Sequence record: MK327931.1
Reading direction: 5' to 3' (one strand)
DNA length: 64,000 bases
From: Escherichia phage vB_EcoM_G17
Position 1 is the stretch's first letter. Each line of letters starts with the position of its first letter. The notes under the pieces are model-generated. The model did not search any database. It was not told where the DNA came from and saw nothing but the letters and a program-made list of their open reading frames with translations. The position numbers were made by a program, and so were the translations under genes. Positions 3,949-43,484 of this stretch are shown piece by piece.

Positions 3949-4567
3949 CATTATTCCTATGGAAACATCAATGAATATACGTGACGTTGATTGCATCAAC
4001 ATCAGTAGAATTATCATGCTACGCATGTCTAATTCTACACAAGTACTATTTTCTTTTAATTAATATTGACGGGGTTTGCTTGAGCATATTTCATCCCCCC
4101 GCAGGGGAAAGAACAAAAAAATTTGACGCTGGTGGCCTTCACATAGTTCATATCACGAATTCTCTTACGAGACGAAAGCGGGTTGCTCTGTTTCTCTCTA
4201 TCGCGGTTCTTGTAGCAACGGTCGTCGGTCTTAAACATCCCGACACATAATACAAATACCATATGACCAGTACTTGTATTTGATTTCACAAAATTTGGAC
4301 GCAACTATATTGTATAATTCCGACCGCATATTTCTTATGAAATCTCCCTTAGATAATTGGTAAGGTGCGATCCTTATATGTCTATCGAGGAACTCTCTTT
4401 ATCCTATTGGAGTTCTTTATACAGCCGCATTGCCGTGAGTGGTTCAAACTATGCCATCATCTAACGGGTTTCATCTGCTGTTCGTACTGAAAGGACTACT
4501 CATCTACCCTCTACATTTTCGAGTGGATTAGGCTTTTAATCATTTCCTTATGGGAACCTTTCAGGAT

Positions 4568-4602
4568 TAAAAAAAGGTGACTAACATATTATGTTGTCAC
4601 CT
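4568..4602 (-). terminator. rho-independent terminator closing the leftward gene array
   Basis: Hairpin GGTGACAACAT/ATGTTAGTCACC at 4576-4601 followed on minus strand by U-run; directly after stop of 4632..5486. Confidence 0.7.
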
Positions 4603-4631
4603 TATATTATATCATTAACTTATCATTTGTC

Positions 4632-21592: not shown

Positions 21593-22143
21593 AATAGTTC
21601 CTTATACATATGATGTACTTTACAAATCTCATTATAGTATTTCATATCAATGTCATTTGTATTAAAAACGGAAACAGACAATACTGCTAACTTATCAATT
21701 AAGTAATTATTATCGGCGTACTGTTTTAACTTATTGAACATATAGATGCATTTTATACTTAATTCATCATGCAACACACTGTTCTGAAAAATATTCTCTT
21801 CAGTATTAGGAGATAAGTAATCTTCAATTATATACGATAAACTACTATCGCAATCTTTATAGATTGAAATTGATGGATGTAATGTGTCATACATTACACT
21901 AAACAGATCACCGTCATATGTGGATATTAAACTATTATTGGAAACAGTAGGATGATAATATTTCAGTACTGAAAACTTTGAACAATCAGTGCAGTAAAAA
22001 TGATCCATCCCTCGACGACTTTCGTATGAGAATAGTTTACTTGTATATTCAATCCCTTTGGTGCGACGGATTGTTTCATGCATTTCTGCACATTGCATTA
22101 AAATTACCATACGTTCAAACGCAAGATCTAAATCATCGTACAT
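21583..22143 (-). CDS. hypothetical protein, FamA paralog
   Basis: FamA core EENIFQNSVLH. Confidence 0.65.
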   Translation of the reverse strand: MYDDLDLAFERMVILMQCAEMHETIRRTKGIEYTSKLFSYESRRGMDHFYCTDCSKFSVLKYYHPTVSNNSLISTYDGDLFSVMYDTLHPSISIYKDCDSSLSYIIEDYLSPNTEENIFQNSVLHDELSIKCIYMFNKLKQYADNNYLIDKLAVLSVSVFNTNDIDMKYYNEICKVHHMYKELLCQ

Positions 22144-22324
22144 AACGGATATCCTTCTTCAACGAATTAATATATTCCAAAATAACTTGTTCCTGATATT
22201 GGGTTCCCAAGTACATCAGTACTTTCAACTCTTTGAATTCAGTACTATATGAGTCTGTTTGCATCATTCTAGTAGAATATATATTGAATAGTTTAGCAAT
22301 ATCATCTTGGTCTATTATTTTCAT
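22133..22324 (-). CDS. hypothetical small protein, FamB paralog
   Basis: FamB core YLGTQYQEQV; isolated FamB pair embedded in FamA block. Confidence 0.6.
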   Translation of the reverse strand: MKIIDQDDIAKLFNIYSTRMMQTDSYSTEFKELKVLMYLGTQYQEQVILEYINSLKKDIRYVR

Positions 22325-22520
22325 TAACCCTCTTCTGTATTAGTTCCTGTAAGTGCTGAATATAACCCTTCATTGCAACATCCTGTTTGTTAGAGCCAAC
22401 GAAGAACAAGAGCTTAAAGTCATGGTAATCCATTTTTGGTTTAGTAGTGAACCATATGTCCCACACTGCACTCACAGTTCTCATGTATTCAATTCGATTA
22501 AATGTTTTTGAATACTTCAT
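22302..22520 (-). CDS. hypothetical small protein, FamB paralog
   Basis: FamB variant core FVGSNKQDVA. Confidence 0.55.
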   Translation of the reverse strand: MKYSKTFNRIEYMRTVSAVWDIWFTTKPKMDYHDFKLLFFVGSNKQDVAMKGYIQHLQELIQKRVNENNRPR

Positions 22521-26786: not shown

Positions 26787-27139
26787 TCTTGAATTCCTAA
26801 ATTGAATTTGTATTCTTGATTAATACTTGCATTGGGTTTATGCAAAGCAGCATACTCTTTCATTTCATTTTGTATTGCAATAACTTCTTCAAATGTACAC
26901 AAGTACTTCTTATCAAATACTAATGATTCTTGGAATAGTTCTGCGGTATCCATTAATGTATAGTCCGGCATATCTTGGTGTGGATACTGTAATGAACTGT
27001 AATCAATGAATGTAAATTTACCCTGAGTGTAATGAATATACTCATTTGCACTGTGCATTAAATCACCTTTGTTTAAATTACAAAAGTACTGATAACTGTG
27101 CTTGAAAGTATGTACTGATATTAAAAAATCAAATTCCAT
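26783..27139 (-). CDS. hypothetical protein, FamA paralog
   Basis: FamA core AELFQESLVF; N-terminus MEFDFLISVH. Confidence 0.65.
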   Translation of the reverse strand: MEFDFLISVHTFKHSYQYFCNLNKGDLMHSANEYIHYTQGKFTFIDYSSLQYPHQDMPDYTLMDTAELFQESLVFDKKYLCTFEEVIAIQNEMKEYAALHKPNASINQEYKFNLGIQE

Positions 27140-27510
27140 CAGTACTCAACCTCTACATAAATAGATTCAGGAAACTTAGTCATATAATCTTCTGGATAGT
27201 TCTGCATTACTTTGATCATTTCTGCCTGTGTAGCACGGACGTATTCAATTGGTGCTCCTGGTAAATTCCAGACAGTACTTTCCTGAAAGAATTCCTCTTC
27301 TGACAGTACTGTCAGATTTACAAAATCATTACGGTAATTTTTTGAATCATCATATGTGAAGATTTTAAAAGACCCATTTTCATATAGTACAAGAACAAAA
27401 TGGGAGAATTTTTGTAATGCACCACCAAGGCTTTCCACGACCGCATGATTCAGTGTACAGATGACCTCTTTTTTCCTCATACCGAATTGAATTCTAATTT
27501 CTTTTTTCAT
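27139..27510 (-). CDS. hypothetical protein, FamA paralog
   Basis: FamA core EEEFFQESTVW. Confidence 0.65.
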   Translation of the reverse strand: MKKEIRIQFGMRKKEVICTLNHAVVESLGGALQKFSHFVLVLYENGSFKIFTYDDSKNYRNDFVNLTVLSEEEFFQESTVWNLPGAPIEYVRATQAEMIKVMQNYPEDYMTKFPESIYVEVEY

Positions 27511-27582
27511 AAAATCTCCTTCAGATTAGTACTGAATTTGTACAGAATATTAGAACTGTATACAGCCTCTGTATCTGTATCC

Positions 27583-27669
27583 ATAATCAAATCACCTTTG
27601 TTTAAATTACAAAAGTACTGATAACTGTGCTTAAAAGAATGTACTGATATTAAAAAATCAAATTCCATC
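27583..27669 (-). pseudogene. 5-prime gene fragment duplicated from 26783..27139
   Basis: About 87 bp nearly identical to 27056-27141 (start region of 26783..27139), encodes MEFDFLISVHSFKHSYQYFCNLNKGD then diverges. Confidence 0.5.
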
Positions 27670-28045
27670 ACACTTCCCCTAGATTGAAATGATTACAAAA
27701 ATCATCTTCACCAGTACTGCACCAGATATCTATACATTCCCTGTGAATACATTTAATTCTACGCTGTAATTCAATCATCTCTTCTAATGTACAGATGTAC
27801 TTCTTATCAAATACTAATGCCGCCTGAAACAGTGCAGCATCATCAAGTACTGTATAGTCCAACATCTCGGTTGCTTTACCCCTAAACCCAGTACTAAAAT
27901 CCATCAAATAAAAGTCAGCATTCCAGTACTTTAAAATCTTGTCCCTAGCGTAGTTTAAATCACCCTTGTATAAGTTAGAGTGCGTAACTAACTCACCAGT
28001 GTACATCCATGTCCTTGCACAAAATTCATTATATTTTATTTCCAT
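27668..28045 (-). CDS. hypothetical protein, FamA paralog
   Basis: FamA core AALFQAALVF; ORF-track N-terminal extension through GC-rich non-coding stretch removed (start at MEIKYNEF). Confidence 0.55.
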   Translation of the reverse strand: MEIKYNEFCARTWMYTGELVTHSNLYKGDLNYARDKILKYWNADFYLMDFSTGFRGKATEMLDYTVLDDAALFQAALVFDKKYICTLEEMIELQRRIKCIHRECIDIWCSTGEDDFCNHFNLGEV

Positions 28046-28243
28046 CTTAATCTCTACTATAATTAATAAGGTAAACTCCAATATAAGGAGAACGTTCGGC
28101 GGCGGGGTATTTTTTGTTTCAAGAAACATGAACTGTACTCTGAAAAACACAATATAAAACTTTATATTAAACATATACCTTAGCATGTTTTTCAGCGGAA
28201 ATTTTTTTGACCCCCCCCTGCGGCCTGTCAAAATGAAACGTCT

Positions 28244-28468
28244 CTATTTATTCAGCCTAGAAACCTTGATTTCTTCAATCCTTTTCATTGCACAAAGCCT
28301 TCGACTCGTCCTCTCGTATATATTCAATACTCGCTGTAATGCATTATCTGTATTATCTGCAACTGCAATCTGAACCAAATATGTATCCTTCAAAATAGAA
28401 TCCATCATGAATTCAAAACCTTTCACACTAAAGCAATATGCCACTTCCGGCTCTTCAAACGTAATCAT
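28244..28468 (-). CDS. hypothetical protein (non-family)
   Basis: ORF track. Confidence 0.5.
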   Translation of the reverse strand: MITFEEPEVAYCFSVKGFEFMMDSILKDTYLVQIAVADNTDNALQRVLNIYERTSRRLCAMKRIEEIKVSRLNK

Positions 28469-28685
28469 AATTCCAATCCCCTATTCCCTCTAACCTTCTA
28501 AGATATCTTGCGTAAATTATTTCGAAATATCTGTGCAACGAAATTACGGATTGCTCATAATCATCATTCCTGTACATTGTGCATGTCAGAAAATCATTTA
28601 ACCCAAAATCTAAACTGCACTTGAACTTCTCCTTTGCAATATCACTATTACTTGCACTTTTCATAATAAACCCTTTGTACCGCAT
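28455..28685 (-). CDS. hypothetical protein (non-family)
   Basis: ORF track. Confidence 0.5.
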   Translation of the reverse strand: MRYKGFIMKSASNSDIAKEKFKCSLDFGLNDFLTCTMYRNDDYEQSVISLHRYFEIIYARYLRRLEGIGDWNYDYV

Positions 28686-28846
28686 TGGTGTACTGTGAAC
28701 TCAGCACCACTAATAGGTAATCTATATTGTAAGCACGATTTCCTCGTTGACTAGCACGGCTGGAATAAAGAATATTATCCACATATGTATTGAACTGATC
28801 TTCAAATAACTCTTTCATCAGCATTATACCATCACATAATCATACA

Positions 28847-29470
28847 TCATACATTAACAACTTTATCGATGTAATCTTCTAACATATCAATATATCTGGT
28901 ATTGGTTCTAACTAAAAGGTATGCAAATCCAGAAAACTCCTGTGTATAATGCTTTACAGCGTACATACAACGAAGCTTATCATTGTCATACATTGTACTG
29001 TACTGAAACAAACTCTCGTCTGATAGCTCTAATAACGCTTGGGCTTCACTTCTCGTGAACTTCATAGGGTCATGTACTGCATCACAAAAACAAACCTGTG
29101 TCTCGCTATTGAAACCCTGTGATAGATATATACCTTCACACTCTGAACGCACCGATACTGCATTATAACTATGTGTTGCCCCCATCATATCTGAACTCAA
29201 AACTAAAATCAACCCATTTTTATTTTTAATCAACAAATCTGACTTAAGGGATTTGATCTCCGTATGGGAAATATCACCAAATCTTCCTGGGACTTCAAAC
29301 TTATCAACGTTGTATACAATCTTTTGTACTTGCTCTTTTAAACGCTTAATTGCACTTCTGTCTTTTTCTAATGTATCTAATAAACTCATTGAACTCATTG
29401 TACTTTCCTTACATATTTGTACCGAACAAAACGGAACTTTGAATGCCATTAATCGACACTTCATGTACAT
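28847..29470 (-). CDS. hypothetical protein, FamA paralog
   Basis: FamA core DESLFQYSTMY. Confidence 0.65.
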   Translation of the reverse strand: MYMKCRLMAFKVPFCSVQICKESTMSSMSLLDTLEKDRSAIKRLKEQVQKIVYNVDKFEVPGRFGDISHTEIKSLKSDLLIKNKNGLILVLSSDMMGATHSYNAVSVRSECEGIYLSQGFNSETQVCFCDAVHDPMKFTRSEAQALLELSDESLFQYSTMYDNDKLRCMYAVKHYTQEFSGFAYLLVRTNTRYIDMLEDYIDKVVNV

Positions 29471-29753
29471 ATATATTTTGTCTGAACAAAGGAACTAATT
29501 GAACTAAACTCGTTTGCATAATAATATGCATATGTACATTGTCATATGCCGTTTCGTATTGGAATCGTGCAGCTTCATCTTCTATGAAATTCGGAACTTG
29601 GACTGGATTCTCAAAATTTGTCCTTGTACTGAACTGTACATCATTGTCCTGTACCTTAATACCATATGAATTATCATTGTTATCAACTACATCAAATTCA
29701 ATTAAACTACCATCTTTACTGACGTTTACTATATAAACCGAAAATCGACTCAT
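29409..29753 (-). CDS. hypothetical protein, FamA paralog
   Basis: FamA core EAARFQYETAY; start approximate. Confidence 0.55.
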   Translation of the reverse strand: MSRFSVYIVNVSKDGSLIEFDVVDNNDNSYGIKVQDNDVQFSTRTNFENPVQVPNFIEDEAARFQYETAYDNVHMHIIMQTSLVQLVPLFRQNIYVHEVSINGIQSSVLFGTNM

Positions 29754-30265
29754 AAACCTATTTCCTCTAAATCTTTGACAAATGTATCATAATCCGATAA
29801 TGACAAAAATATGTCTGTACTGATGTTTTGACGTAATGTATTAAACAAATTATGTACCTGTAATAAATCAGGTGCATAAATCAGGGATTGCTGGAAATAC
29901 GATTCTTCTGTATCTAATATATCCCTGCACTCAATTTCACGAACTCGTTGGTATATTGAATTTAATAATACATTTTCATCTTTGAGCATTGGAAGGTATC
30001 GGATGTACATGTGCTCCATCAACTCATCCTGGATTGAACCCCTGAACTGCAACACGTATTCAAAACACATCACTACATCTTGTAGGTAATTGGCACTGTA
30101 ATTATTGCTGTAAACAATCTTATGACTTCTGAACTCATCATCATTTCTGAACCAATTGTCACCTACTTTGGTGTACTTATGACTAAGCTTCCCATCCTCC
30201 AACGCTCGAATGAACTTCATAATGTTAATTGCAAAATCATATGAATGATGCTTGTGTTGATGCAT
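29750..30265 (-). CDS. hypothetical protein, FamA paralog
   Basis: FamA core EESYFQQSLIY. Confidence 0.65.
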   Translation of the reverse strand: MHQHKHHSYDFAINIMKFIRALEDGKLSHKYTKVGDNWFRNDDEFRSHKIVYSNNYSANYLQDVVMCFEYVLQFRGSIQDELMEHMYIRYLPMLKDENVLLNSIYQRVREIECRDILDTEESYFQQSLIYAPDLLQVHNLFNTLRQNISTDIFLSLSDYDTFVKDLEEIGL

Positions 30266-30273
30266 TTTTTACC

Positions 30274-30468
30274 TCAATTCTGTCCGAAAAAATAACCAAA
30301 ATGTTTAAAGCAAGAAAGCATTACTATGTTCATCACTCTATCATCAAATTCATCTTGTGTTTCTGCACATAATGTTTCACAGATATTCAAATGTAATAAT
30401 TCAAGCTGGAAACTGTCGGTGAACCAATCAAACTTACGGTATTTTTGTTTAACATCAACTGTAAGCAT
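30274..30468 (-). CDS. hypothetical small protein
   Basis: ORF track; 64 aa. Confidence 0.45.
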   Translation of the reverse strand: MLTVDVKQKYRKFDWFTDSFQLELLHLNICETLCAETQDEFDDRVMNIVMLSCFKHFGYFFGQN

Positions 30469-30469
30469 A

Positions 30470-31093
30470 CTATATATCCAACCCTTTTACAACATCTACG
30501 AAATGTTCAAACACTTCTTTTGAAAAATAACCACCTTCACAAAAAAGCATACTAAACGGTGGCAGCATGTCCGATAACTCTTTAGCTAAATTGATTTCTG
30601 CTCTTAACTCTTGAACATCAATGATATCATGTACTAAAGATAATTGAAACATGAATGCATCTACATCTTCATTCATTTCTGAATTGTAATATAACTCTTC
30701 AGGGAATTTGTCGGTTTCGTAATAATAAAAAACTTTATTGTTGAACACACCACTAATAGGAACATCATTTTCATCTTTCTTTGAAATGTTTGTTTCCCAT
30801 GACTCTATATTATTAGGAACAAAAAAATCATAGGCTGATTTTGAACCCTGTACTGAATCCAACTTTATTCCATAATATTCCGTATCCATGTATTTCTGCT
30901 GTAATGTAATACCACGTGTACTGACATTCACTTGGAATATATCATCTTTATCTGGAACACTAAATGGAATACATAACACTGAATTCTCAGGGTATTTGGC
31001 AATGAATGCATCCAGCACTTTATTAAGCACCGGAATGGCAATTTTACTGTACTGCATCAAATCATACATTTTAATTCTGGTCATATCATTCAC
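30470..31093 (-). CDS. hypothetical protein, FamA paralog
   Basis: FamA core DAFMFQLSLVH. Confidence 0.65.
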   Translation of the reverse strand: MNDMTRIKMYDLMQYSKIAIPVLNKVLDAFIAKYPENSVLCIPFSVPDKDDIFQVNVSTRGITLQQKYMDTEYYGIKLDSVQGSKSAYDFFVPNNIESWETNISKKDENDVPISGVFNNKVFYYYETDKFPEELYYNSEMNEDVDAFMFQLSLVHDIIDVQELRAEINLAKELSDMLPPFSMLFCEGGYFSKEVFEHFVDVVKGLDI

Positions 31094-33879: not shown

Positions 33880-34417
33880 AACTATATCCTTGCATTAATA
33901 AATCATAAACTACATGGACTAAATTTAATTGAATATAAAATTTTAAACCTTTAATTAATGAATTCAAATGCATTGTACTGAATAACATTAGATACATCAT
34001 CTCATGCGGTTTTGTGATTAATGATTTTTGAAATACGCCAGCTTCATCATAAGGGTCTATGAACTGAAATTTGTCTTCATCATAATTTGTATTGGAATGC
34101 TGATATATAAAATAATCATCATTGGTATTGTACCACAAATATCCTTCGAATCCTGTACTAACATCTTTGGTCAATGGGGATGCTGATACTGGATTTGAAC
34201 TGATTAATGCACCTACATCAACAATCCCCGTTGTATCATATTCGATTTCAACATCAATATCAATGTATTTCCTTGCGATATCTGCGTTTATGGACAAATA
34301 TAAACTACCACCTGTCCTCTGACTCAGGATTCCATCTATATGCGATATAGGATGGTTGTTATTGAGGATAAGCATTATTGTACTTATCTTGTGTGCTAAT
34401 AACTCTATCTCATTCAT
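33869..34417 (-). CDS. hypothetical protein, FamA paralog
   Basis: FamA core EAGVFQKSLIT. Confidence 0.6.
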   Translation of the reverse strand: MNEIELLAHKISTIMLILNNNHPISHIDGILSQRTGGSLYLSINADIARKYIDIDVEIEYDTTGIVDVGALISSNPVSASPLTKDVSTGFEGYLWYNTNDDYFIYQHSNTNYDEDKFQFIDPYDEAGVFQKSLITKPHEMMYLMLFSTMHLNSLIKGLKFYIQLNLVHVVYDLLMQGYSYEV

Positions 34418-34617
34418 AATTTACCTATCGATGGATACCTAGGATTTGTAGGATGTAAAATCCTGTCCTGTACTGAAAGGTGCTCAAATGTAATTAAACT
34501 CAAATAATAATCGTAATTATCAATACCACCCTTCAAATGTATATTGTAATACATCTTAATACTATCTAATAATGAATCCTGTAATGCATTTAATGTTATC
34601 GTATTAATCTTTTGCAT
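34414..34617 (-). CDS. hypothetical small protein
   Basis: ORF track; ATGA coupling. Confidence 0.5.
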   Translation of the reverse strand: MQKINTITLNALQDSLLDSIKMYYNIHLKGGIDNYDYYLSLITFEHLSVQDRILHPTNPRYPSIGKL

Positions 34618-34765
34618 TAATGTTCTTCTCTTAAAAATCGTTTGATAGCATAATCTAAATAAAATTCATAACACATGCTATCTCTGTTCTTTATCCATAT
34701 TTTGTAATCGGATTTTATATTACGCAACAAATAATTTGTATTAATTGTGTAATAATCTAATCGCC

Positions 34766-35158
34766 CTAATCTTTCCATTTAATAGGATACTCCTTTCCTT
34801 GTACTATATATGACAAAATCCATCCGTAATGAATAGGATGATTTTTGTCTGAATCAGGAATAAAATATAAAGCTGTACTTGGATTATGACTGAATAAATC
34901 TTTATTGTCAAATGTAAAATGTGATAATATAATTTTCCTTGCACTTGGACGAATAACATTCTTAACACTGAACTCTGAACCTTTGTATTTCTCCGATAAT
35001 TCAAATAATGCATCTGTAATTAAATCACTGATCTCTTGGATTACAAAATTCTGATAAAATGCATTAATCTCTTTTAACTCTGTATACAATTCACTTCTGG
35101 TATTCAAAAGAAATATTACTTTTTTAAGATCCTGAACTATTTCTGGATTCATATTCAT
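34766..35158 (-). CDS. hypothetical protein
   Basis: ORF track. Confidence 0.55.
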   Translation of the reverse strand: MNMNPEIVQDLKKVIFLLNTRSELYTELKEINAFYQNFVIQEISDLITDALFELSEKYKGSEFSVKNVIRPSARKIILSHFTFDNKDLFSHNPSTALYFIPDSDKNHPIHYGWILSYIVQGKEYPIKWKD

Positions 35159-35390
35159 TTATCTCATTCTGTAACTTAAGCATCAAAATTTGCATATTAA
35201 TTTTTTGTAAAAGGTGCTTGATAAATTTCTGTGCCATTTCTTCTTGTTCTTTTGTACCAAGATAAAATAACAGATTAAATTCTGATAATCGCAAAGAAAA
35301 ATCTTCATCACCACCCTTTAAACAAAAATCCCTGTACTTTGTAGCGTACAAATATTGGTTTACCTTTTTATAATACCCTGTGTTTTGCAT
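35124..35390 (-). CDS. hypothetical small protein, FamB paralog
   Basis: FamB core YLGTKEQEEM. Confidence 0.6.
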   Translation of the reverse strand: MQNTGYYKKVNQYLYATKYRDFCLKGGDEDFSLRLSEFNLLFYLGTKEQEEMAQKFIKHLLQKINMQILMLKLQNEINEYESRNSSGS

Positions 35391-36579: not shown

Positions 36580-36889
36580 TAGGCTCCTGTTTAGATTCTT
36601 TCATTAGTACTATCATCTTATGTACTAATGGCATAGGGAACTCTAAATCCCATACTAATGATTCCTGGAAGTATTCCTCTGGTGATAAAGTACTTAAATC
36701 TTTAATATCAACGTGCTTGTATATTTTATTTTCGTAATTAACAAATGATATATATAAATCACTAACATAAGAATCATAGGTAATTGTGAATGGCTTACCC
36801 TTGTAATCCATTACATCTCTACATAGACTACTTTTGATATATGTATGTTCAAATGATTTATATACCTTGAGTTGTATATTAGTTTTCAT
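36545..36889 (-). CDS. hypothetical protein, FamA paralog
   Basis: FamA core PEEYFQESLVW. Confidence 0.65.
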   Translation of the reverse strand: MKTNIQLKVYKSFEHTYIKSSLCRDVMDYKGKPFTITYDSYVSDLYISFVNYENKIYKHVDIKDLSTLSPEEYFQESLVWDLEFPMPLVHKMIVLMKESKQEPNGDYEEHIVEY

Positions 36890-37154
36890 ATTTCTCTTTA
36901 TTAGCTTGTTTGGTTTTATAGTGAATTAAATCTATTAATGTAATCAAGTACAACGTCAAATAGTACTCTTGTTGATCTGTACCTAATGATACAAAGAACT
37001 TGTGCTCATAGATTAAAACCTGTTTCTCTTCAAATGGACATTTAATCCTCTGTATAGGCTTAAGTAAATGATAGTACTTATTAAATCTATGATACATTTC
37101 TAGTTCTGTCAGTACTTTCATATTAAACACATACTCCATTAGCTGTAGCATCAC
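36879..37154 (-). CDS. hypothetical small protein, FamB paralog
   Basis: FamB core SLGTDQQEYY. Confidence 0.6.
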   Translation of the reverse strand: MMLQLMEYVFNMKVLTELEMYHRFNKYYHLLKPIQRIKCPFEEKQVLIYEHKFFVSLGTDQQEYYLTLYLITLIDLIHYKTKQANKEKYEN

Positions 37155-37344
37155 GTAAAGCTGTCAAATACTTCTGTACGGCTTGCTCTTGCTTATTTGT
37201 ACCTAAAAGTATATACATCCATAATTCACTGTAATGTACATCTTGTGTATAAGGGTCATTGTAACTTTTTGATAATATAGCATCAAATTCAGATGCATGA
37301 ACCCTTGTGAACTTAAGAATATCTTGTTGTGTTATGATTCTCAT
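37123..37344 (-). CDS. hypothetical small protein, FamB paralog
   Basis: FamB core LLGTNKQEQA. Confidence 0.65.
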   Translation of the reverse strand: MRIITQQDILKFTRVHASEFDAILSKSYNDPYTQDVHYSELWMYILLGTNKQEQAVQKYLTALRDATANGVCV

Positions 37345-37556
37345 ATCTTTTCCTGTACAATCTGTATAAGAATACCTATGTGTGAATTAACAGTTCTCTC
37401 TTGATGCTGTGTTCCTAAGAGTGTCAGTACTATCATATCTGAACGCAAAAGATTTTTTTCAAGTTCACTTATATCAGTTCTTGAATCAAGTGCCATATAT
37501 TTGTGATTATTCTTCCTGAATAGTGCCAAGTACTCTTGGTTTGATATTATCTTCAT
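37341..37556 (-). CDS. hypothetical small protein, FamB paralog
   Basis: FamB core LLGTQHQERT. Confidence 0.65.
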   Translation of the reverse strand: MKIISNQEYLALFRKNNHKYMALDSRTDISELEKNLLRSDMIVLTLLGTQHQERTVNSHIGILIQIVQEKI

Positions 37557-37768
37557 AGTTTACTTTTAATTTCCATTAAAAGTGCTCTAATATGCTCATT
37601 GACAAATCGCTCTTGGGAATCTGTGTCTAGGGTGAGAAGCATTCTTAAATCGGAACCTCTGATGGTATATTCTAAATCATTCTTTGATTCTCGCATAAGT
37701 TTCTGAAAGGATGAGAAGTGTAATCCCATGAGTTCAATGTATTCTGCTGTTCCTAGTGGTTTTGGCAT
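37553..37768 (-). CDS. hypothetical small protein, FamB paralog
   Basis: FamB core TLDTDSQERF. Confidence 0.65.
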   Translation of the reverse strand: MPKPLGTAEYIELMGLHFSSFQKLMRESKNDLEYTIRGSDLRMLLTLDTDSQERFVNEHIRALLMEIKSKL

Positions 37769-37986
37769 TTTAGTTCAATAGCTCGTTTAAGTGTATTAAT
37801 ATAATCTTTAATGTCGTGTTCTTGATAGTTCGTTCCAAGGGTAGCTAGAACATAGACTTCATTTCTCTTAATAATTTTATCCATATCTGGTATATCTGAT
37901 GTGTTAATGACGAAGAGCTTCAAAAACAGTCCATTTATGATTGTTAGGTATTCTACATCGGTAATGATTTTCATTTGCATTTGCAT
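37753..37986 (-). CDS. hypothetical small protein, FamB paralog
   Basis: FamB core TLGTNYQEHD. Confidence 0.65.
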   Translation of the reverse strand: MQMQMKIITDVEYLTIINGLFLKLFVINTSDIPDMDKIIKRNEVYVLATLGTNYQEHDIKDYINTLKRAIELKCQNH

Positions 37987-38192
37987 TTTCTCAGTACTGA
38001 TTCTTTAAGTTCATTGATGTAGCACTCTACATATTCTTCTTGTAGGTTTGTTCCGATATGTAACAGTACTCTTAAATCTGCTCTCAGTACTTCTTTGTCA
38101 TCTTCATCTATATCAGACAGTGTTATGTTTAAGAATTTACTTGAACTCTCTATAAGTAATATTACTGAATCACCTTTGCTTAAAATTTTCAT
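37971..38192 (-). CDS. hypothetical small protein, FamB paralog
   Basis: FamB core HIGTNLQEEY. Confidence 0.65.
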   Translation of the reverse strand: MKILSKGDSVILLIESSSKFLNITLSDIDEDDKEVLRADLRVLLHIGTNLQEEYVECYINELKESVLRKCKCK

Positions 38193-38400
38193 AATCTCTT
38201 TTTGCTTTCCTCGCCAAAAGGTACATATACGATTCTTCGTATTGTGCTTGGTAGTTTGTGTTTAAGAGTCGAAACAACTTCTGTTCTGCTAGAACTAGTT
38301 GCTTATCTTCATAACAACGGTAGCGTATCAACTTTTTGTATTCGATGTTGATTACATCCATTACTATAAGCCCATGTTCATCATCTGTCAAGTGTTTCAT
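38170..38400 (-). CDS. hypothetical small protein, FamB paralog
   Basis: FamB core LLNTNYQAQY. Confidence 0.65.
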   Translation of the reverse strand: MKHLTDDEHGLIVMDVINIEYKKLIRYRCYEDKQLVLAEQKLFRLLNTNYQAQYEESYMYLLARKAKRDYENFKQR

Positions 38401-38639
38401 GCATTTTTTCTTTTTCTTATATGTTTAGTTAAAAGGTATATTAGTTTTCTGATGTATTCTTCTTGATAGTTTGTTCCTAAGAGTGCAAGAAGTTTTGCTT
38501 CAACTAAAGCTAGTTGTCGTTCTTCGAATGTGTGTTCCAGTATGTACTTGGGGTTTGATTTTTTAGCGTAAGCACTATTAGTCTTCATTACAATCTTATG
38601 ATATTCATTAGCTGTTAGGATTTTTAAATACTTGATCAT
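38397..38639 (-). CDS. hypothetical small protein, FamB paralog
   Basis: FamB core LLGTNYQEEY. Confidence 0.65.
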   Translation of the reverse strand: MIKYLKILTANEYHKIVMKTNSAYAKKSNPKYILEHTFEERQLALVEAKLLALLGTNYQEEYIRKLIYLLTKHIRKRKNA

Positions 38640-38859
38640 GTATCTTTTCCTTTATAGAGAATTTAAGATATCGAAGCATACTTTCAATGTAATACTCTTG
38701 TCTGTCAGTGCCAAGAAAGTACATGAGTTGAATGTATAAAACTTCTGCACTCCTTTCCGCTGGAGACTTGTTTGTGTCGTTTGGAAGTTGATTTGTATGT
38801 TTTCTTGATTTAATTAGTCGTTCTTTTAACTCATCGTCTGTTAAGTATTTCATTTTCAT
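38608..38859 (-). CDS. hypothetical small protein, FamB paralog
   Basis: FamB core FLGTDRQEYY. Confidence 0.65.
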   Translation of the reverse strand: MKMKYLTDDELKERLIKSRKHTNQLPNDTNKSPAERSAEVLYIQLMYFLGTDRQEYYIESMLRYLKFSIKEKIHDQVFKNPNS

Positions 38860-39085
38860 TTACTTTTTCCTTAATAGTGATTTTAAGATATCTAATCATA
38901 CGTGCAACATATTCCTCTTGTCTATCAGTTCCCAGAAGATATGGTAGTGATTGGAATAATACTTCTGCACTCCTTTCTGCTGGGGTTTGGTTTAGGTCAA
39001 TTGGACGTTTATTGGTATATCTCTTGGCACGAACTAATCTCTCGACGTATTCATTATAGGTTAAGTATATCATTTCATTTTGCAT
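38831..39085 (-). CDS. hypothetical small protein, FamB paralog
   Basis: FamB core LLGTDRQEEY. Confidence 0.65.
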   Translation of the reverse strand: MQNEMIYLTYNEYVERLVRAKRYTNKRPIDLNQTPAERSAEVLFQSLPYLLGTDRQEEYVARMIRYLKITIKEKVNENEILNRR

Positions 39086-39305
39086 TTACTTTTTCCTTAA
39101 TACTCATTATAAGATGTTCAATCATATTTTGAACCATAAATTCTTGTTTATCAGTTCCAAGAACGTATGGTAGCTTCTGAAACAATACATTTGCAGATAC
39201 TTCAGATATTGATTGATTTGGAACGAACTTAAGAGTAATGTTTTTGGTTTTTAACATCTTCTCTTGAAATTCTTCATTCGTTAAGTATATCATTTCATTT
39301 TGCAT
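39075..39305 (-). CDS. hypothetical small protein, FamB paralog
   Basis: FamB core VLGTDKQEFM. Confidence 0.65.
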   Translation of the reverse strand: MQNEMIYLTNEEFQEKMLKTKNITLKFVPNQSISEVSANVLFQKLPYVLGTDKQEFMVQNMIEHLIMSIKEKVNAK

Positions 39306-39521
39306 TTACATTCTCTCATATATATTTTGGGTTAAAAGGTCAATCCAGATTTCCACATATCGTTGTTGGTGTTGCGTCCCTAACAGTACACCCAACTTAG
39401 CTTCACACTCTAATAACAATCTGGTTTTGTATGGTAGACTTTGGAATCCTATAGTAGCATCTAATTTGGTAATTGCATAGTTGATTCGGATGAATCTTTC
39501 TTGCAATGTGATGTTGTTCAT
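39306..39521 (-). CDS. hypothetical small protein, FamB paralog
   Basis: FamB core LLGTQHQQRY. Confidence 0.65.
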   Translation of the reverse strand: MNNITLQERFIRINYAITKLDATIGFQSLPYKTRLLLECEAKLGVLLGTQHQQRYVEIWIDLLTQNIYERM

Positions 39522-39808
39522 TTCTTAGTACACCTCAGTGGTTGGGTCATTTGATAAAAGTACAGCTTACCTTTGATTTCCAGTAGTAACTCCGCGATTA
39601 AGCGATTTACTTCTGTATCTTGATAGTTTGTTCCTAAGAATACACCCATCTTTAACTCACGCATCATAATCATTTTCTTACTGTGTTGAATTTCTGGGTT
39701 GTGATAGATTGTATTACGTTTGTGCGTAATTTTTGTCATACGCTCGGTATATTCATCTTTACTTAAATTGATCATTTGCATGTTCATCAACCTCACATTT
39801 ATTTTCAA
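39518..39808 (-). CDS. hypothetical small protein, FamB paralog
   Basis: FamB core FLGTNYQDTE. Confidence 0.65.
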   Translation of the reverse strand: MKINVRLMNMQMINLSKDEYTERMTKITHKRNTIYHNPEIQHSKKMIMMRELKMGVFLGTNYQDTEVNRLIAELLLEIKGKLYFYQMTQPLRCTKK

Positions 39809-39810
39809 TA

Positions 39811-40077
39811 CTATTCTTTAGTTTGTAGATATAGTTTTCTTCCAATGTATCTCTTAAGTGCGATTATGTATTCATCTACATAATACTCCTGATAGTTTGT
39901 TCCTATGAATGCACCCACCTTTAACTCAAGTTTCATAATCATCTTATTTCCGTGTTTAATGACTTCTCCGTGATGGATTTCATTAAGTCCAGGTGCAATT
40001 TTCACCAGGCGTTCTTTATATTTTGCTTGAGATAATTTAATCATTTTCATGTTAATTACCCTTACATTTATTTTCAA
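39811..40077 (-). CDS. hypothetical small protein, FamB paralog
   Basis: FamB core FIGTNYQEYY. Confidence 0.65.
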   Translation of the reverse strand: MKINVRVINMKMIKLSQAKYKERLVKIAPGLNEIHHGEVIKHGNKMIMKLELKVGAFIGTNYQEYYVDEYIIALKRYIGRKLYLQTKE

Positions 40078-40282
40078 TACTATTCATGAGTTCTATAAGA
40101 TAGTTTTCTACCTTACCTTCCTGATAGTTAGTCCCTAGGAAGTTGCACAACACGGCTTCTATGATTTTGATTTTCCTGATATCAGGCTTCAATCTTTTGT
40201 TATTGAATATTTGAATCCTTATATCTCTGGATGCATTTAAACGTTTTTGATATTCATGGTAAGTTAAATGAATCATTTTCAT
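40052..40282 (-). CDS. hypothetical small protein, FamB paralog
   Basis: FamB core FLGTNYQEGK. Confidence 0.65.
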   Translation of the reverse strand: MKMIHLTYHEYQKRLNASRDIRIQIFNNKRLKPDIRKIKIIEAVLCNFLGTNYQEGKVENYLIELMNSIENKCKGN

Positions 40283-40497
40283 TTACGTTTAACCTCTCGC
40301 TGGAGGGCATCAATTAACATCAGTACAGCATTCTCTTGATAGTTTGTTCCTAAGACTGAAAGCATCTTTATCTCATTTACTAAAATCAACTTCTTTGAGG
40401 GTTCAATAATGTGACTATCATAAACGGCCTTACGTGCTGGATAAGTTTTCGCCAGTATAACATAAAATTCGTCTTTACTTAAATTAATCATTTGCAT
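40279..40497 (-). CDS. hypothetical small protein, FamB paralog
   Basis: FamB core VLGTNYQENA. Confidence 0.65.
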   Translation of the reverse strand: MQMINLSKDEFYVILAKTYPARKAVYDSHIIEPSKKLILVNEIKMLSVLGTNYQENAVLMLIDALQREVKRK

Positions 40498-40706
40498 TTA
40501 CTTTTAACCTCTTTCTGTAGAGCGTCAATCCATAGATCTACATACATTTGTTGATAGTTTGTGCCTAAGAGTGCACCTACATAGAGTTCAGTTACTAGTG
40601 CGTGCTTAAGGTTAGCTTGGATGCTCTTATCGCTTGATATCATTCTCCTTCTGCTTCCACATGTTTTCAGGAGTCTGATGTATTCAAAGCCTTGTAAATT
40701 TCTCAT
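40488..40706 (-). CDS. hypothetical small protein, FamB paralog
   Basis: FamB core LLGTNYQQMY. Confidence 0.65.
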   Translation of the reverse strand: MRNLQGFEYIRLLKTCGSRRRMISSDKSIQANLKHALVTELYVGALLGTNYQQMYVDLWIDALQKEVKSKCK

Positions 40707-40918
40707 ATTTTGGATACCACCTTGTTACGTAAGGAACTTAATAATACGTCAGTGTAGATGTTTTGATAGTTTGTCCCTACGAATACACCCAACTTCATTT
40801 CAGCTATTATAACACATTTGTCCTCTTGTGCAATAGATTTGTTTAACACAATACTATACACTTTTGATTTGATAGTTTGTAACCTCCAATGATACTGATA
40901 CTCATTAAGGATTATCAT
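40703..40918 (-). CDS. hypothetical small protein, FamB paralog
   Basis: FamB core FVGTNYQNIY. Confidence 0.65.
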   Translation of the reverse strand: MIILNEYQYHWRLQTIKSKVYSIVLNKSIAQEDKCVIIAEMKLGVFVGTNYQNIYTDVLLSSLRNKVVSKI

Positions 40919-41165
40919 TCTCTTTCCTCCAGATTTCGGTTCTCATGTGTTGGCAGTGTGCATCAATATATTGCTCTATCGATCTGGCGATTGCTGTTTT
41001 ATCAGTGCCTGTCATCAGTACAAGCATCTCGGCCTCACAGTGAAGTAAACGCATGATATCATAGGGTAATATTTCAGATACCGTGTCATAGTGTTTCTGT
41101 GCCAGTGTCTGCAATAGTTTACAATACATTTTGTGATTTAGTCTTTGTCGCATTGTTTCTTCCAT
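40905..41165 (-). CDS. hypothetical small protein, divergent FamB paralog
   Basis: Variant core LMTGTDKTAI. Confidence 0.55.
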   Translation of the reverse strand: MEETMRQRLNHKMYCKLLQTLAQKHYDTVSEILPYDIMRLLHCEAEMLVLMTGTDKTAIARSIEQYIDAHCQHMRTEIWRKENDNP

Positions 41166-41410
41166 TCTCTTCTGGCTTGGCGGGTTTTATCTGATATTTC
41201 GTTTCTCAATGCAGAGATATATCGTAGAGTGAACAGTTCTTGATAGTTAGTCCCTATGAATTTATTAAGATATACATCAGCGTTGACGATATCAGCTTCA
41301 CGGGAATTATAAAGTTTATTGTTAGTGCGAAGGGTGTTTAGAAGAGAGAAGAGGGCAGTCTGATACTCAGTGCTTGATAAAGTTTTCATATTTTTCCACA
41401 ATTCGTTCAT
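41138..41410 (-). CDS. hypothetical small protein, FamB paralog
   Basis: FamB core FIGTNYQELF. Confidence 0.65.
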   Translation of the reverse strand: MNELWKNMKTLSSTEYQTALFSLLNTLRTNNKLYNSREADIVNADVYLNKFIGTNYQELFTLRYISALRNEISDKTRQARREWKKQCDKD

Positions 41411-41624
41411 TTAGTTTTATCTGTATAAGATCCATTAGTTGTTCAAGATAATCGGTACAATATTTCTCTTGATATTGGGTTCCCACAAAGTACAGCAACC
41501 ATAGCTCATGAACTTTAACTTTCATCTCGTTCCATGAAAGTGCATCGTCATCGTAGATTACTCTTGCTTCTGGGGTGAGCTTTCGAATTCTAAGTGAATA
41601 TTCATCGTCCGTCAAGTGTTTCAT
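41367..41624 (-). CDS. hypothetical small protein, FamB paralog
   Basis: FamB core FVGTQYQEKY. Confidence 0.65.
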   Translation of the reverse strand: MKHLTDDEYSLRIRKLTPEARVIYDDDALSWNEMKVKVHELWLLYFVGTQYQEKYCTDYLEQLMDLIQIKLNERIVEKYENFIKH

Positions 41625-41779
41625 TTACATTTATCCCTTATTAGATTTGTGAGTGCAACTATGTGTTCATGGATATAAAAATTTTGATGAGAAGTTCCAA
41701 GAAAGTACAGCATCCATCCCTCACTCTGCTCGACTTCTAGTTTAGTATCGAGTTGGTCAGATATGTTAATGAAAACCAT
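41621..41779 (-). CDS. hypothetical small protein, FamB paralog (52 aa)
   Basis: Below ORF-track cutoff; reading by eye gives MVFINISDQ...FLGTSHQNFY; fills gap in array with ATGA/TAATG coupling. Confidence 0.5.
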   Translation of the reverse strand: MVFINISDQLDTKLEVEQSEGWMLYFLGTSHQNFYIHEHIVALTNLIRDKCK

Positions 41780-42036
41780 TAGTTCTTTTCCTTTCTTTCT
41801 ATTTGTTTCATAAGAACATCGATATACTCACCCGCAAACCTATTCTGATACTGCGTCCCCATGAATTCCAACATCCATACTTCAGCAACCTTTTCTTCAA
41901 TTTCAGTCCATTGTAAGTACATCATAGTGAAGTAAATGGTGTTCTCTTTTTTTCTGGCACTCTTAGCACGGGCCTCGTATTCAAAGTTATTAATGATGTT
42001 CATTACATTTGTCCATAATGTAATTCTTGAGTGCAA
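41779..42036 (-). CDS. hypothetical small protein, FamB paralog
   Basis: FamB core FMGTQYQNRF. Confidence 0.65.
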   Translation of the reverse strand: MHSRITLWTNVMNIINNFEYEARAKSARKKENTIYFTMMYLQWTEIEEKVAEVWMLEFMGTQYQNRFAGEYIDVLMKQIERKEKN

Positions 42037-42217
42037 CTATGTGTGCAATAACATACTCTTCCTGGAAGTTCGTCCCCAGTACAGCCAACATGCGTACATC
42101 GGTGGTGTTTATCTTGTGTTCCAATCGAGTTAAACCTTTTATTTGTAAAAGGGTATCGTATTTGTTTAATGCATCAATGATAATTCTCATCTTCTCAATA
42201 TTACTTAAATGTTTCAT
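41990..42217 (-). CDS. hypothetical small protein, FamB paralog
   Basis: FamB core VLGTNFQEEY. Confidence 0.65.
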   Translation of the reverse strand: MKHLSNIEKMRIIIDALNKYDTLLQIKGLTRLEHKINTTDVRMLAVLGTNFQEEYVIAHIVALKNYIMDKCNEHH

Positions 42218-42426
42218 AGTTTACTCTTAATGTAGTTCTGAAGTTCAATTAAGTATTTCCCTACATAATACTCCTGAAAGTCTGTATCCAAAAATGCACC
42301 CAAAAGTAAATCCTTCTCCATTGCCCTTGATAAGTTAAGGTCTGCATTTGAAAGGTATATAAGTAATATTTCAGTCTGGACAGAATTAAAACGTTTCTTA
42401 TATTCTTCAGGTGTTAATATAATCAT
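42214..42426 (-). CDS. hypothetical small protein, FamB paralog
   Basis: FamB core FLDTDFQEYY. Confidence 0.65.
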   Translation of the reverse strand: MIILTPEEYKKRFNSVQTEILLIYLSNADLNLSRAMEKDLLLGAFLDTDFQEYYVGKYLIELQNYIKSKL

Positions 42427-42638
42427 AATTTGCTCCTGATGTATTTCTCAAGAGATGACAAATACTTTTCCTCATAATACTCCTGATAGTCTGTTCCCAA
42501 GAATGCACCCATAAGTATTTCATTTTCCAATACCTCGGCTAAGTTTAAATCAGACGTCTCTTCGTATATTATGAGGATTTCAAGTTGTCTGGCAGCGATG
42601 CGTTCAGTATATTGATATGAGTTTTCTATAATAATCAT
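42423..42638 (-). CDS. hypothetical small protein, FamB paralog
   Basis: FamB core FLGTDYQEYY. Confidence 0.65.
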   Translation of the reverse strand: MIIIENSYQYTERIAARQLEILIIYEETSDLNLAEVLENEILMGAFLGTDYQEYYEEKYLSSLEKYIRSKL

Positions 42639-42844
42639 ATTTTACTCTTAATATCTTCTATTAAAAATCGAATCCATTCTTCAACATAATCTTCCTGATG
42701 GTTTGTGTTCAGTACAGCCAACATGCGGATCTCTGCTCTTGCAACTTCAATTTCAGTTTTAGGCAGGTCTTTGCTGATATCCACCATTAAGTCCATGTAT
42801 TTCAAGATAAGACCGTATGATTGGGTTCGTGTTATAGTTTTCAT
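42635..42844 (-). CDS. hypothetical small protein, FamB paralog
   Basis: FamB core VLNTNHQEDY. Confidence 0.65.
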   Translation of the reverse strand: MKTITRTQSYGLILKYMDLMVDISKDLPKTEIEVARAEIRMLAVLNTNHQEDYVEEWIRFLIEDIKSKI

Positions 42845-43041
42845 TGTTTCCTCGTGGACAATATTTTATTTTTCAATGTATCCATATATTGCCACACCCA
42901 TCTACCCTGATAGTTTGTTCCCAATGTAATCAAAAGGTATAACTCCATTCGTTCTACGTGTGTGTCTGTGTTGTAAATCTTTACGTAGTTTTTACGTAAC
43001 AGTGATTGATATTCTTCTTTATTTAAAATACGCATTTTCAT
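42841..43041 (-). CDS. hypothetical small protein, FamB paralog
   Basis: FamB core TLGTNYQGRW. Confidence 0.65.
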   Translation of the reverse strand: MKMRILNKEEYQSLLRKNYVKIYNTDTHVERMELYLLITLGTNYQGRWVWQYMDTLKNKILSTRKQ

Positions 43042-43265
43042 AGTTTACTCGTTATATCTTCAATTAAATACCAAATCCAATCGTTGACATACCTTTCCTG
43101 AAAGTTAGTTCCAATGAATAGTGCCATAATTAATTCACGCTTATAGGCAATACCACGGTCATGGGACTTATACATTATCATAGCCATGTTATTGATAAGT
43201 CTTTCGTGGTGCTGTTCTTTAGTTAAAATACGCATAGGGACTCCCTTAAAATTAATATCAATCAT
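43038..43265 (-). CDS. hypothetical small protein, FamB paralog (first gene of array)
   Basis: FamB core FIGTNFQERY; AAGGGAG SD before internal ATG (MRILTKEQ). Confidence 0.6.
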   Translation of the reverse strand: MIDINFKGVPMRILTKEQHHERLINNMAMIMYKSHDRGIAYKRELIMALFIGTNFQERYVNDWIWYLIEDITSKL

Positions 43266-43484
43266 ATTTTATACGATTCATATAAAAAGTCAATAACATT
43301 TTATTCGTAATACCCCTTTATCGAAGTCGCTAAGGTTACCCGCCCTTTAGCCCCCTACGCATTTTGCCATAGTCCAATCCCTTTTATTTCAAAAAAGTCA
43401 AGGGATTACCTATGCATTTTTTTAACGCATAATTTTAAAAACGCCTTGACTTTTTTCTGAATCAGTACTAGATCCCTTTACGCA
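43266..43484 (-). promoter_or_regulatory. non-coding control region upstream of the paralog super-array
   Basis: About 220 bp without ORF; TTGACT -35-like boxes, inverted repeat AAAAAAGTCAAGG/CCTTGACTTTTTT, repeated ACGCAT-containing motifs. Confidence 0.45.

Follow-up and report, generated by a model that had tools for sequence, protein, structure and literature searches.

The 64,000-nucleotide (nt) stretch of Escherichia phage vB_EcoM_G17 analysed here (sequence record MK327931.1; hereafter the window) carries an array of paralogous genes, FamA, which is broken at positions 28046-28846 by a block of three small genes, p58, p76 and p74, and a 198-nt non-coding spacer. The block is a 100% match to Escherichia phage Sharanji (OR545507.1), and values labelled Sharanji below stand for the window sequence, which is identical there. 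The window also matches ~35 further Asteriusvirus records, the 121Q / PBECO4 / phAPEC6 group of ~350-kb jumbo genomes, at 79-99%. All credible genes of the window are on the minus strand and tightly packed, with frequent overlaps of 1-20 nt. An iterated profile finds 41 FamA members between 8191 and 36889, corresponding to PHROGs 15629, 13866, 30243, 28680 and others. The aligned members share an invariant F-Q in the acidic context E-E-[YF]-[YF]-F-Q-x-S-[LT]-V; elsewhere their mean identity is only ~13%. The motif resembles the recognition consensus of tobacco etch virus (TEV)-type proteases (E-x-x-Y-x-Q-S/G), a likeness that may be coincidence. Both neighbours of the block are minus-strand FamA members with matches to PHROG families, the downstream one (27668-28045, start ATG at 28045) of the phrog_15629 subfamily and the upstream one (28847-29470) of the phrog_30243 subfamily. 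An earlier note on this DNA had assigned both to FamA, and the profile and the FQ motif confirm the assignment.

The gene p58 lies at 28648-28824 on the minus strand and encodes 58 amino acids (aa), or 55 aa in many relatives. It matches phrog_29794, a family without an assigned function (E=5.5e-43), and is annotated in several relatives. The earlier note had rightly seen a third small open reading frame (ORF) here, which it placed ~40 nt away, at roughly 28686-28846, with a length of about 50 aa. The p58 ORF overlaps the start of the p76 ORF. The two other ORFs exist as the note had listed them, also on the minus strand. The longest p76 ORF (28455-28685) has 76 aa and its orthologues have 66-76 aa. 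Sharanji gp003 is annotated at 28455-28664 and most orthologues begin there, so the conserved start of p76 is probably the ATG at 28664, giving 69 aa here and 67-70 aa in relatives. The third gene, p74 (28244-28468, 74 aa), evolves fast and consists of a conserved N-terminus, a variable acidic linker with ADN/ADD repeats and indels, and a conserved basic C-terminal helix. The three genes overlap one another and together span 581 nt. A perfect extended -10 element, TGGTATAAT, is present on the minus strand at 28823-28831, overlapping the p58 start codon. If it were active, transcription would begin near the third codon, another ATG, from which the gene is annotated in UE-S1.

The ORFs of the trio are intact in nearly all relatives examined, that of p58 in 14. 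The median ratios of nonsynonymous to synonymous substitution (dN/dS) range from 0.19 to 0.50 (p58 0.19, p76 0.31, p74 0.50), and the three genes are under purifying selection. Since their frames are kept intact and their dN/dS values are in this range, they are real genes. We also considered whether the trio might be a decayed, frameshifted FamA-type gene of ~190 aa, that is, a pseudogenised array member with the spacer as its degenerated neighbour. The total of 581 nt is the size of a long FamA gene, the genes overlap head-to-tail, and a faint likeness can be seen by eye between ELFEDQF..T..D in p58 and EEYYFQ.ST..D in FamA. However, the profile scores are at noise. Hidden Markov model searches of the trio with the FamA profile (hmmsearch) gave E=2.2 for p58 and 7.5 for p76, with p74 unlisted at E<=10, and hhalign comparison with FamA gave probabilities of 0.1-0.3%. 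The profile of FamB, the second paralogue family of the window, gave E=4.0 for p58 and 9.0 for p74, with p76 unlisted at E<=10. No neighbour of the trio was found among the window proteins with phmmer, and its proteins contain no F-Q, Y-Q or W-Q and thus lack the FamA motif. Three frames that are each kept open in nearly all relatives, and dN/dS below 1, are not expected of pseudogenes. The pseudogene explanation is accordingly highly improbable, and the earlier view that the three genes are unrelated to FamA holds.

No Pfam or NCBIfam family was found for the trio. In homology searches, tblastn of each of the three proteins against 50,697 phage records at E<=1 found only the same 32 Asteriusvirus records, and in a collection of 5.8 billion proteins the trio matched only close relatives of at least 59% identity (Asteriusvirus phages, E. 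coli-labelled assemblies and metagenome contigs). An exhaustive profile search with p74 against 1.84 billion representatives gave 3 clusters, all of one family. Across billions of proteins, these searches identified no homologue of the trio beyond Asteriusvirus phages. The AlphaFold2 model of p76 is a two-helix hairpin (helices 6-31 and 36-58) with a predicted local distance difference test score (pLDDT) of 77 and a predicted template modelling score (pTM) of 0.62, and a fold search with it found only generic helical hairpins (E>=0.95). The p74 model is helical, of low confidence (pLDDT 65) and too poor for a fold search. Two weak matches of p74, to phrog_401 (E=0.0076) and to KaiB (E=0.03), were taken as chance.

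The spacer (28046-28243, minus strand) separates p74 from the downstream FamA gene, and alignments show it to be conserved and single-copy. The earlier note had described a GC-rich non-coding stretch with C-run and GCGG motifs at this place. The stretch is non-coding and motifs of these kinds are present, with C8 at 28211-28218 being one of only three G/C runs of at least 6 in 64 kb. The spacer as a whole is not GC-rich (35.4% vs 34.3% for the window); instead, two islands of ~30 nt with 62-65% GC flank a 94-nt core of 25.5% GC. GC island 1 (28203-28236) contains the C8/G8 run, whose length varies from 4 to 9 among isolates. GC island 2 (28083-28111) reads CCCCGCCGCCGAACG on the minus strand, is preceded by an A-tract and spans -20 to -40 upstream of a candidate -10 box; phage JNE01 has a different GC-rich sequence at its place. 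The most conserved part of the spacer is the core GGGGTCAAAAAAATTTCCGC (28195-28214, minus strand), which is at the edge facing the variable cargo and is unique in the window. The core motif is single-copy in each genome, with the 19-mer GGGTCAAAAAAATTTYCGC present a single time per locus at 13 of the 18 loci searched, among them those of the very divergent phages JNE01 and Turkey5. In IMG/VR the core motif had one match only, on a contig of 348,532 bp.

Spacer divergence was compared with that of synonymous sites (dS) in a distant clade (Ec-M-J, Turkey3 and TH47). The spacer shows 0.06-0.10 substitutions per site, compared to dS values of 0.19-0.37 for the FamA gene labelled FamA_L, 0.13-0.17 for p76, 0.29-0.33 for p58 and ~0.7 for the upstream FamA gene. 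The dS of p74 (0.05-0.18) is in the same range as the spacer; the p74 allele of this clade was recently exchanged and is common to Sharanji. The spacer thus changes more slowly than the synonymous sites of three of the four adjacent genes. The spacer has a counterpart in phage A4 of 94.7% identity over 170 nt, with both flanks unalignable at the DNA level. The most divergent phages, JNE01 and Turkey5, have a gap of 204 nt at the same place which keeps the exact 19-mer GGGTCAAAAAAATTTCCGC and the same architecture, namely a G-rich island, A7T3, the AT-rich core, an A-tract, a GC island and ~45 nt to the ATG.

These data bear on whether the spacer could be functionless intergenic DNA that the phages tolerate and that seems conserved because recombination has recently spread it across the genus. 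In favour of this, the mosaic nature of the locus is demonstrated, as described below; UE-S1, ph0011 and SD-1_S14 survive lacking most of the spacer; and neither the promoter and terminator scan nor the consensus fold found a recognisable signal. However, JNE01 and Turkey5 retain both the core motif and the architecture, in surrounding DNA that is ~70% identical or unalignable, and a gap of 198 nt is far above the 0-60 nt typical of the array. We consider a functionless spacer unlikely, while granting it a small but real chance.

In the minus strand of the spacer, no sigma-70 site with at least 9/12 matches was found wholly inside 28046-28243; in the only match nearby, the -35 box falls at the edge of the spacer and the -10 box within the downstream gene. 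The coding strand of the spacer contains no terminator-like hairpin with a T-run. In contrast, other gaps in the array (12251-12191, 15550-15464, 32216-32165 and 36174-36116) carry a terminator of the hairpin-plus-T-run type followed by a good sigma-70 promoter. Because the spacer has neither of these elements, the comparison points to a control that differs in kind from the host-type terminator-promoter pairs of the other gaps. A candidate -10 hexamer, TATATT, is located at 28080-28085 on the minus strand with no -35 box and would leave a leader of ~28 nt for the gene at 27668-28045. It is found 32-36 nt upstream of the ATG in both Sharanji and JNE01, with a GC island at the -35 place and the A-tract farther upstream. 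The consensus promoter scan demands a -35 match and thus does not report it. TATATT is the only promoter-like feature common to the Sharanji and JNE01 spacers and, judged by its sequence and position, may serve as a promoter.

Several other signals were tried and rejected. The TGAAACG-type divergent promoter of CBB and GAP32 (PMC5259590) is represented by a TGAAAC, with no -10 box at a fitting distance. A T4 MotA box, nut-like boxA/boxB elements and a dnaX-like frameshift site (GGGGGG-UC-AAAAAAA-UUUCCG-hairpin) were seen by eye only and are not kept between clades, and no ORF runs through the frameshift site. The proximal spacer might have been the relic of a FamA 5' end (EFTLLIIVE compared to MEFDFLISVH); the DNA similarity is at shuffle level.

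Could the spacer encode a short peptide, or else a structured non-coding RNA (a small RNA, a tRNA-like RNA or a cis-regulatory element, for example one for antitermination)? Its single-copy conservation and slow change would suit this, as would the imperfect inverted repeats nested within it. One such repeat, CTGAAAAACA ... TGTTTTTCAG, 79% complementary, occupies the AT-rich core (28131-28204). JNE01 has CGCTTTAACAA, which may resemble the boxA core; the majority clade has GAAAAACA at that position. The pairing of the 28131-28204 repeat is disrupted in Ec-M-J and Turkey3 with no compensating changes. The folding energy of the spacer is no better than that of shuffled sequences (z -0.6 and -0.8 for the two strands), and the consensus fold of six divergent copies reaches -10 kcal/mol with an unfavourable covariation term of +0.75, its evident helices being broken in relatives without compensation. 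ARAGORN found no tRNA or tmRNA in the spacer, and no Rfam family matched it at gathering score, with only noise at E<=10. Long-range pairing of the GC islands and the inner hairpin was likewise rejected, as the 5' arm is constant while the 3' arm varies and no compensatory changes are seen. With respect to a peptide, the Sharanji spacer is stop-free in the frame common to the flanking genes, and the ORF of the downstream gene extends to 28231. This extension is open in Sharanji only; the relatives have stops and homopolymer indels that shift the frame, and no peptide is conserved. The same stops and indels led us to reject a read-through or N-terminal extension joining p74, the spacer and the downstream FamA gene in one frame with a single TAG between them. 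An RNA or peptide encoded by the spacer is therefore quite unlikely. Outside the block, a nuoG RNA match at 30439-30465 (E=0.075) was taken as chance.

To what extent the block is an insertion can be judged from its distribution. The block is present at the same position and at full length in 30 of the 33 matching records, across all clades, and it is single-copy in the window and in each relative. The exceptions and variants show that its parts behave separately. In A4, divergent orthologues of 28847-29470, 29750-30265 and 30470-31084 run up to the spacer, the first of them ending 42 nt from it, and the trio is absent. The trio is therefore dispensable, since A4 retains the flanking FamA orthologues and the spacer without it. 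In JNE01 and Turkey5 the slot beside the spacer core is filled by three different small genes, encoding 74 aa, a 44-aa FamB-like fragment and 64 aa, for none of which a relationship to the trio could be detected; remote homology comparison of the JNE01 slot genes with the trio (hhalign) gave probabilities below 2%. UE-S1 keeps the trio and has the spacer replaced by 55 nt, in ph0011 the spacer is reduced to its proximal third, and SD-1_S14 carries a 253-nt deletion over the spacer/p74 junction.

The history of the block also differs from that of its flanks. Sharanji and PBECO4 show no synonymous difference in either flanking FamA gene (dS = 0), but across 28300-28499 they differ at 26-41 positions per 100 nt. 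Over this same region Sharanji and the distant clade are near-identical, with 10-43 differing positions per 100 nt in their flanks. At least three allele types of p74 occur, with a distribution discordant with that of the flanking genes and with linkers that gain or lose ADN/ADD units. This allele pattern is a signature of recombination and perhaps reflects diversifying selection. Collectively, these results show that the locus is a recombination mosaic, with the trio as an optional cassette that swaps alleles and the spacer as a conserved junction.

The earlier note had proposed that an insertion interrupted the FamA array, and a recent foreign or mobile insertion in this lineage (a moron, a transposable element or a cassette of the homing-endonuclease type) would be one form of this. 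The block is indeed foreign to FamA, with no FamA-like features, its trio is dispensable in A4, and it has a history separate from its flanks; to this extent the proposal stands. However, the block occupies the same place in nearly all genomes. Neither direct nor inverted repeats nor a target-site duplication were found at its ends, 28046 and 28846, and no mobility gene (transposase, integrase or endonuclease) is among its matches in Pfam, PHROGs with a function and NCBIfam. Its composition is that of the background (35.3% vs 34.3% GC), no source homologue was identified outside the genus, and spacer and trio vary independently, with UE-S1 having only the trio and A4 only the spacer. The flanking FamA genes belong to different subfamilies, and thus no recent tandem pair was split and the block is at a sub-array boundary. 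Given the shared position in 30 of the 33 records, the lack of flanking repeats and the lack of a mobility gene, the block is neither a recent nor a mobile insertion. That explanation is largely refuted and very unlikely. The interruption itself is real but not unique: ~22 other non-family genes also break the array, including the small-gene clusters at 22133-22520 and 34414-35390.

We propose, with moderate confidence, that the plastic left arm of an Asteriusvirus jumbo phage has long carried the block as an accessory module, and that the spacer is an internal regulatory region. In this proposal the trio would be a genus-restricted cassette of overlapping, probably translationally coupled genes encoding predicted alpha-helical proteins. 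These may be non-essential early or accessory proteins that bind host or phage partners. From its position the trio is probably expressed with the early or middle genes of the left arm, and by analogy with other small orphan proteins of phages it probably acts through partner binding. The p74 protein would be under diversifying pressure, its alleles being exchanged by homologous recombination. The spacer would be constrained without being essential, and would serve as an internal regulatory region within a long operon that runs leftward. The promoter-proximal half may comprise a 5' untranslated region and a promoter for the downstream FamA genes that lacks a -35 box and needs either an activator or the phage sigma factor (WNN14470.1). 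The distal half, with the invariant GGGGTCAAAAAAATTTCCGC, may be a protein-binding or processing site and the conserved junction at which small-gene cargo is swapped.

Some of our observations weigh against this proposal. The candidate -10 box is only a 5/6 match and lies in AT-rich DNA, and promoters, terminators and processing sites of the spacer are at most candidates suggested by sequence. The high identity of the A4 spacer could result from recent recombination rather than from constraint. Three phages, UE-S1, ph0011 and SD-1_S14, lack the distal spacer, which is thus not essential. The models of the trio are generic helical hairpins without a significant structural neighbour and suggest no link to any activity.

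A bolder variant is that the spacer is the recognition region for a phage-specific transcription factor or phage sigma factor and represents a new promoter class, with p74 as a diversifying inhibitor of host defence or of a host protein. The GGGGTCAAAAAAATTTCCGC motif, together with the GC island replacing a -35 box, would then activate the FamA sub-operon downstream of it at a set time, and the p74 alleles would be exchanged in an arms race. We regard this variant as speculative and its being correct as a long shot.

The surroundings of the block place it within a larger pattern of paralogue arrays and terminal repeats. FamB comprises 32 members of ~70-90 aa in a near-continuous head-to-tail array at 36879-43265, and a few members are embedded within the FamA array (22133-22520 and 35124-35390). 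The termini of phage fEgEco12 were determined experimentally, with a terminal repeat of 20,993 bp (PMC13070987). Mapped onto the window, the inner end of this repeat is at ~43,334, within the gap 43266-43484, and by homology 43.3-64 kb is a direct terminal repeat region of ~21 kb. The block is ~15 kb downstream, in the direction of transcription, of this early, terminally repeated region, and in fEgEco12 it is located at ~36.5-37.2 kb. We rejected the idea that the block marks a terminus or packaging site, which the start of the Sharanji record 490 nt away (window 27556) might suggest, given that the fEgEco12 repeat ends at window 43,334. The Sharanji GenBank record is cut at 27556 in mid-array, inside a polymorphic segment and away from the physical terminus indicated by fEgEco12, and the cut point is arbitrary.

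The polymorphic segment is 444 nt long (27142-27585), is present in the window and ~10 relatives and is absent from PBECO4 and ~20 others. Direct repeats of 85 nt (27057-27141 and 27586-27670), 96% identical to each other, form its borders and are the 5' ends of two FamA paralogues. Inside the segment are one FamA gene (27139-27510) and a truncated 5' copy (27507-27671), an arrangement that suggests duplication or deletion through recombination between paralogues. Elsewhere in the window, a comparatively GC-rich, ORF-less gap of 369 nt (4263-4631) follows a terminator-like hairpin and has no Rfam match at gathering score. The A4 orthologue of the FamA gene at 29750-30265, A4_348 (L004 3779-4315), carries the annotation 'DNA ligase' but has a FamA profile match at E=5.9e-12, and the label is probably wrong.

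The locus can be compared with three known systems. The hyperplastic regions of T4-type phages contain promoter-early stem-loop (PeSL) cassettes (Arbiol et al. 2010, PMC2839356; Comeau et al. 2014, PMC4122927). Like these regions, the locus is dense in small, non-essential orphan genes, small-gene modules are inserted, deleted and replaced between relatives beside a conserved, regulatory-looking intergenic sequence, and alleles are exchanged through homologous recombination. In contrast, PeSLs are multi-copy and carry a strong sigma-70 promoter and a terminator stem-loop, whereas the spacer is single-copy and its coding strand carries neither of them. It thus lacks three of four PeSL properties (promoter, terminator and multiple copies) and shares only the location at module junctions, as seen in A4, JNE01 and Turkey5; it should not be classed as a PeSL. 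In 43266-64000 almost every small gene is preceded by a repeated cassette that does resemble T4-type PeSLs, with a sigma-70-like promoter (AGTACTTGCA, or TTGACA, 17 nt, TATAAT) followed by a 5' stem-loop (GGGGAGA...TCTCCCC).

The morons of lambdoid phages, reportedly described by Juhala et al. in 2000, are additional genes located between two neighbours that adjoin each other in related phages. The trio resembles them in that its flanking genes adjoin in A4 with only the spacer between, making the trio an optional extra. Unlike morons, it has no promoter-terminator pair of its own that we could find, the only promoter-like element being the extended -10 at the start of p58. Its composition is not distinct from that of the genome, its presence is the majority state in the genus, and the phage is virulent. 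Tandem paralogue arrays have been noted for phAPEC6, with credit to Hua et al. for the view that jumbo genomes expand by tandem duplication (PMC7247149). The 41 FamA and 32 FamB members around the block agree with this pattern, but the block itself belongs to neither family.

Taken alone, the block is of little weight, being another orphan-gene cassette with an intergenic region in a jumbo phage in which ~80% of the genes have no function assigned. Such a feature is ordinary for a plastic region of a phage genome and will not surprise phage genomicists. Its value is as a worked example of how Asteriusvirus paralogue arrays are organised and evolve: the arrays are split into sub-arrays by small non-family genes and a few regulatory gaps, and cargo beside a conserved junction is lost, replaced or allele-swapped. 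If the trio, and p74 in particular, were to act in host takeover or anti-defence, the natural variants would provide ready-made genetic controls, namely the trio-less A4, the spacer-less UE-S1 and at least three p74 alleles.

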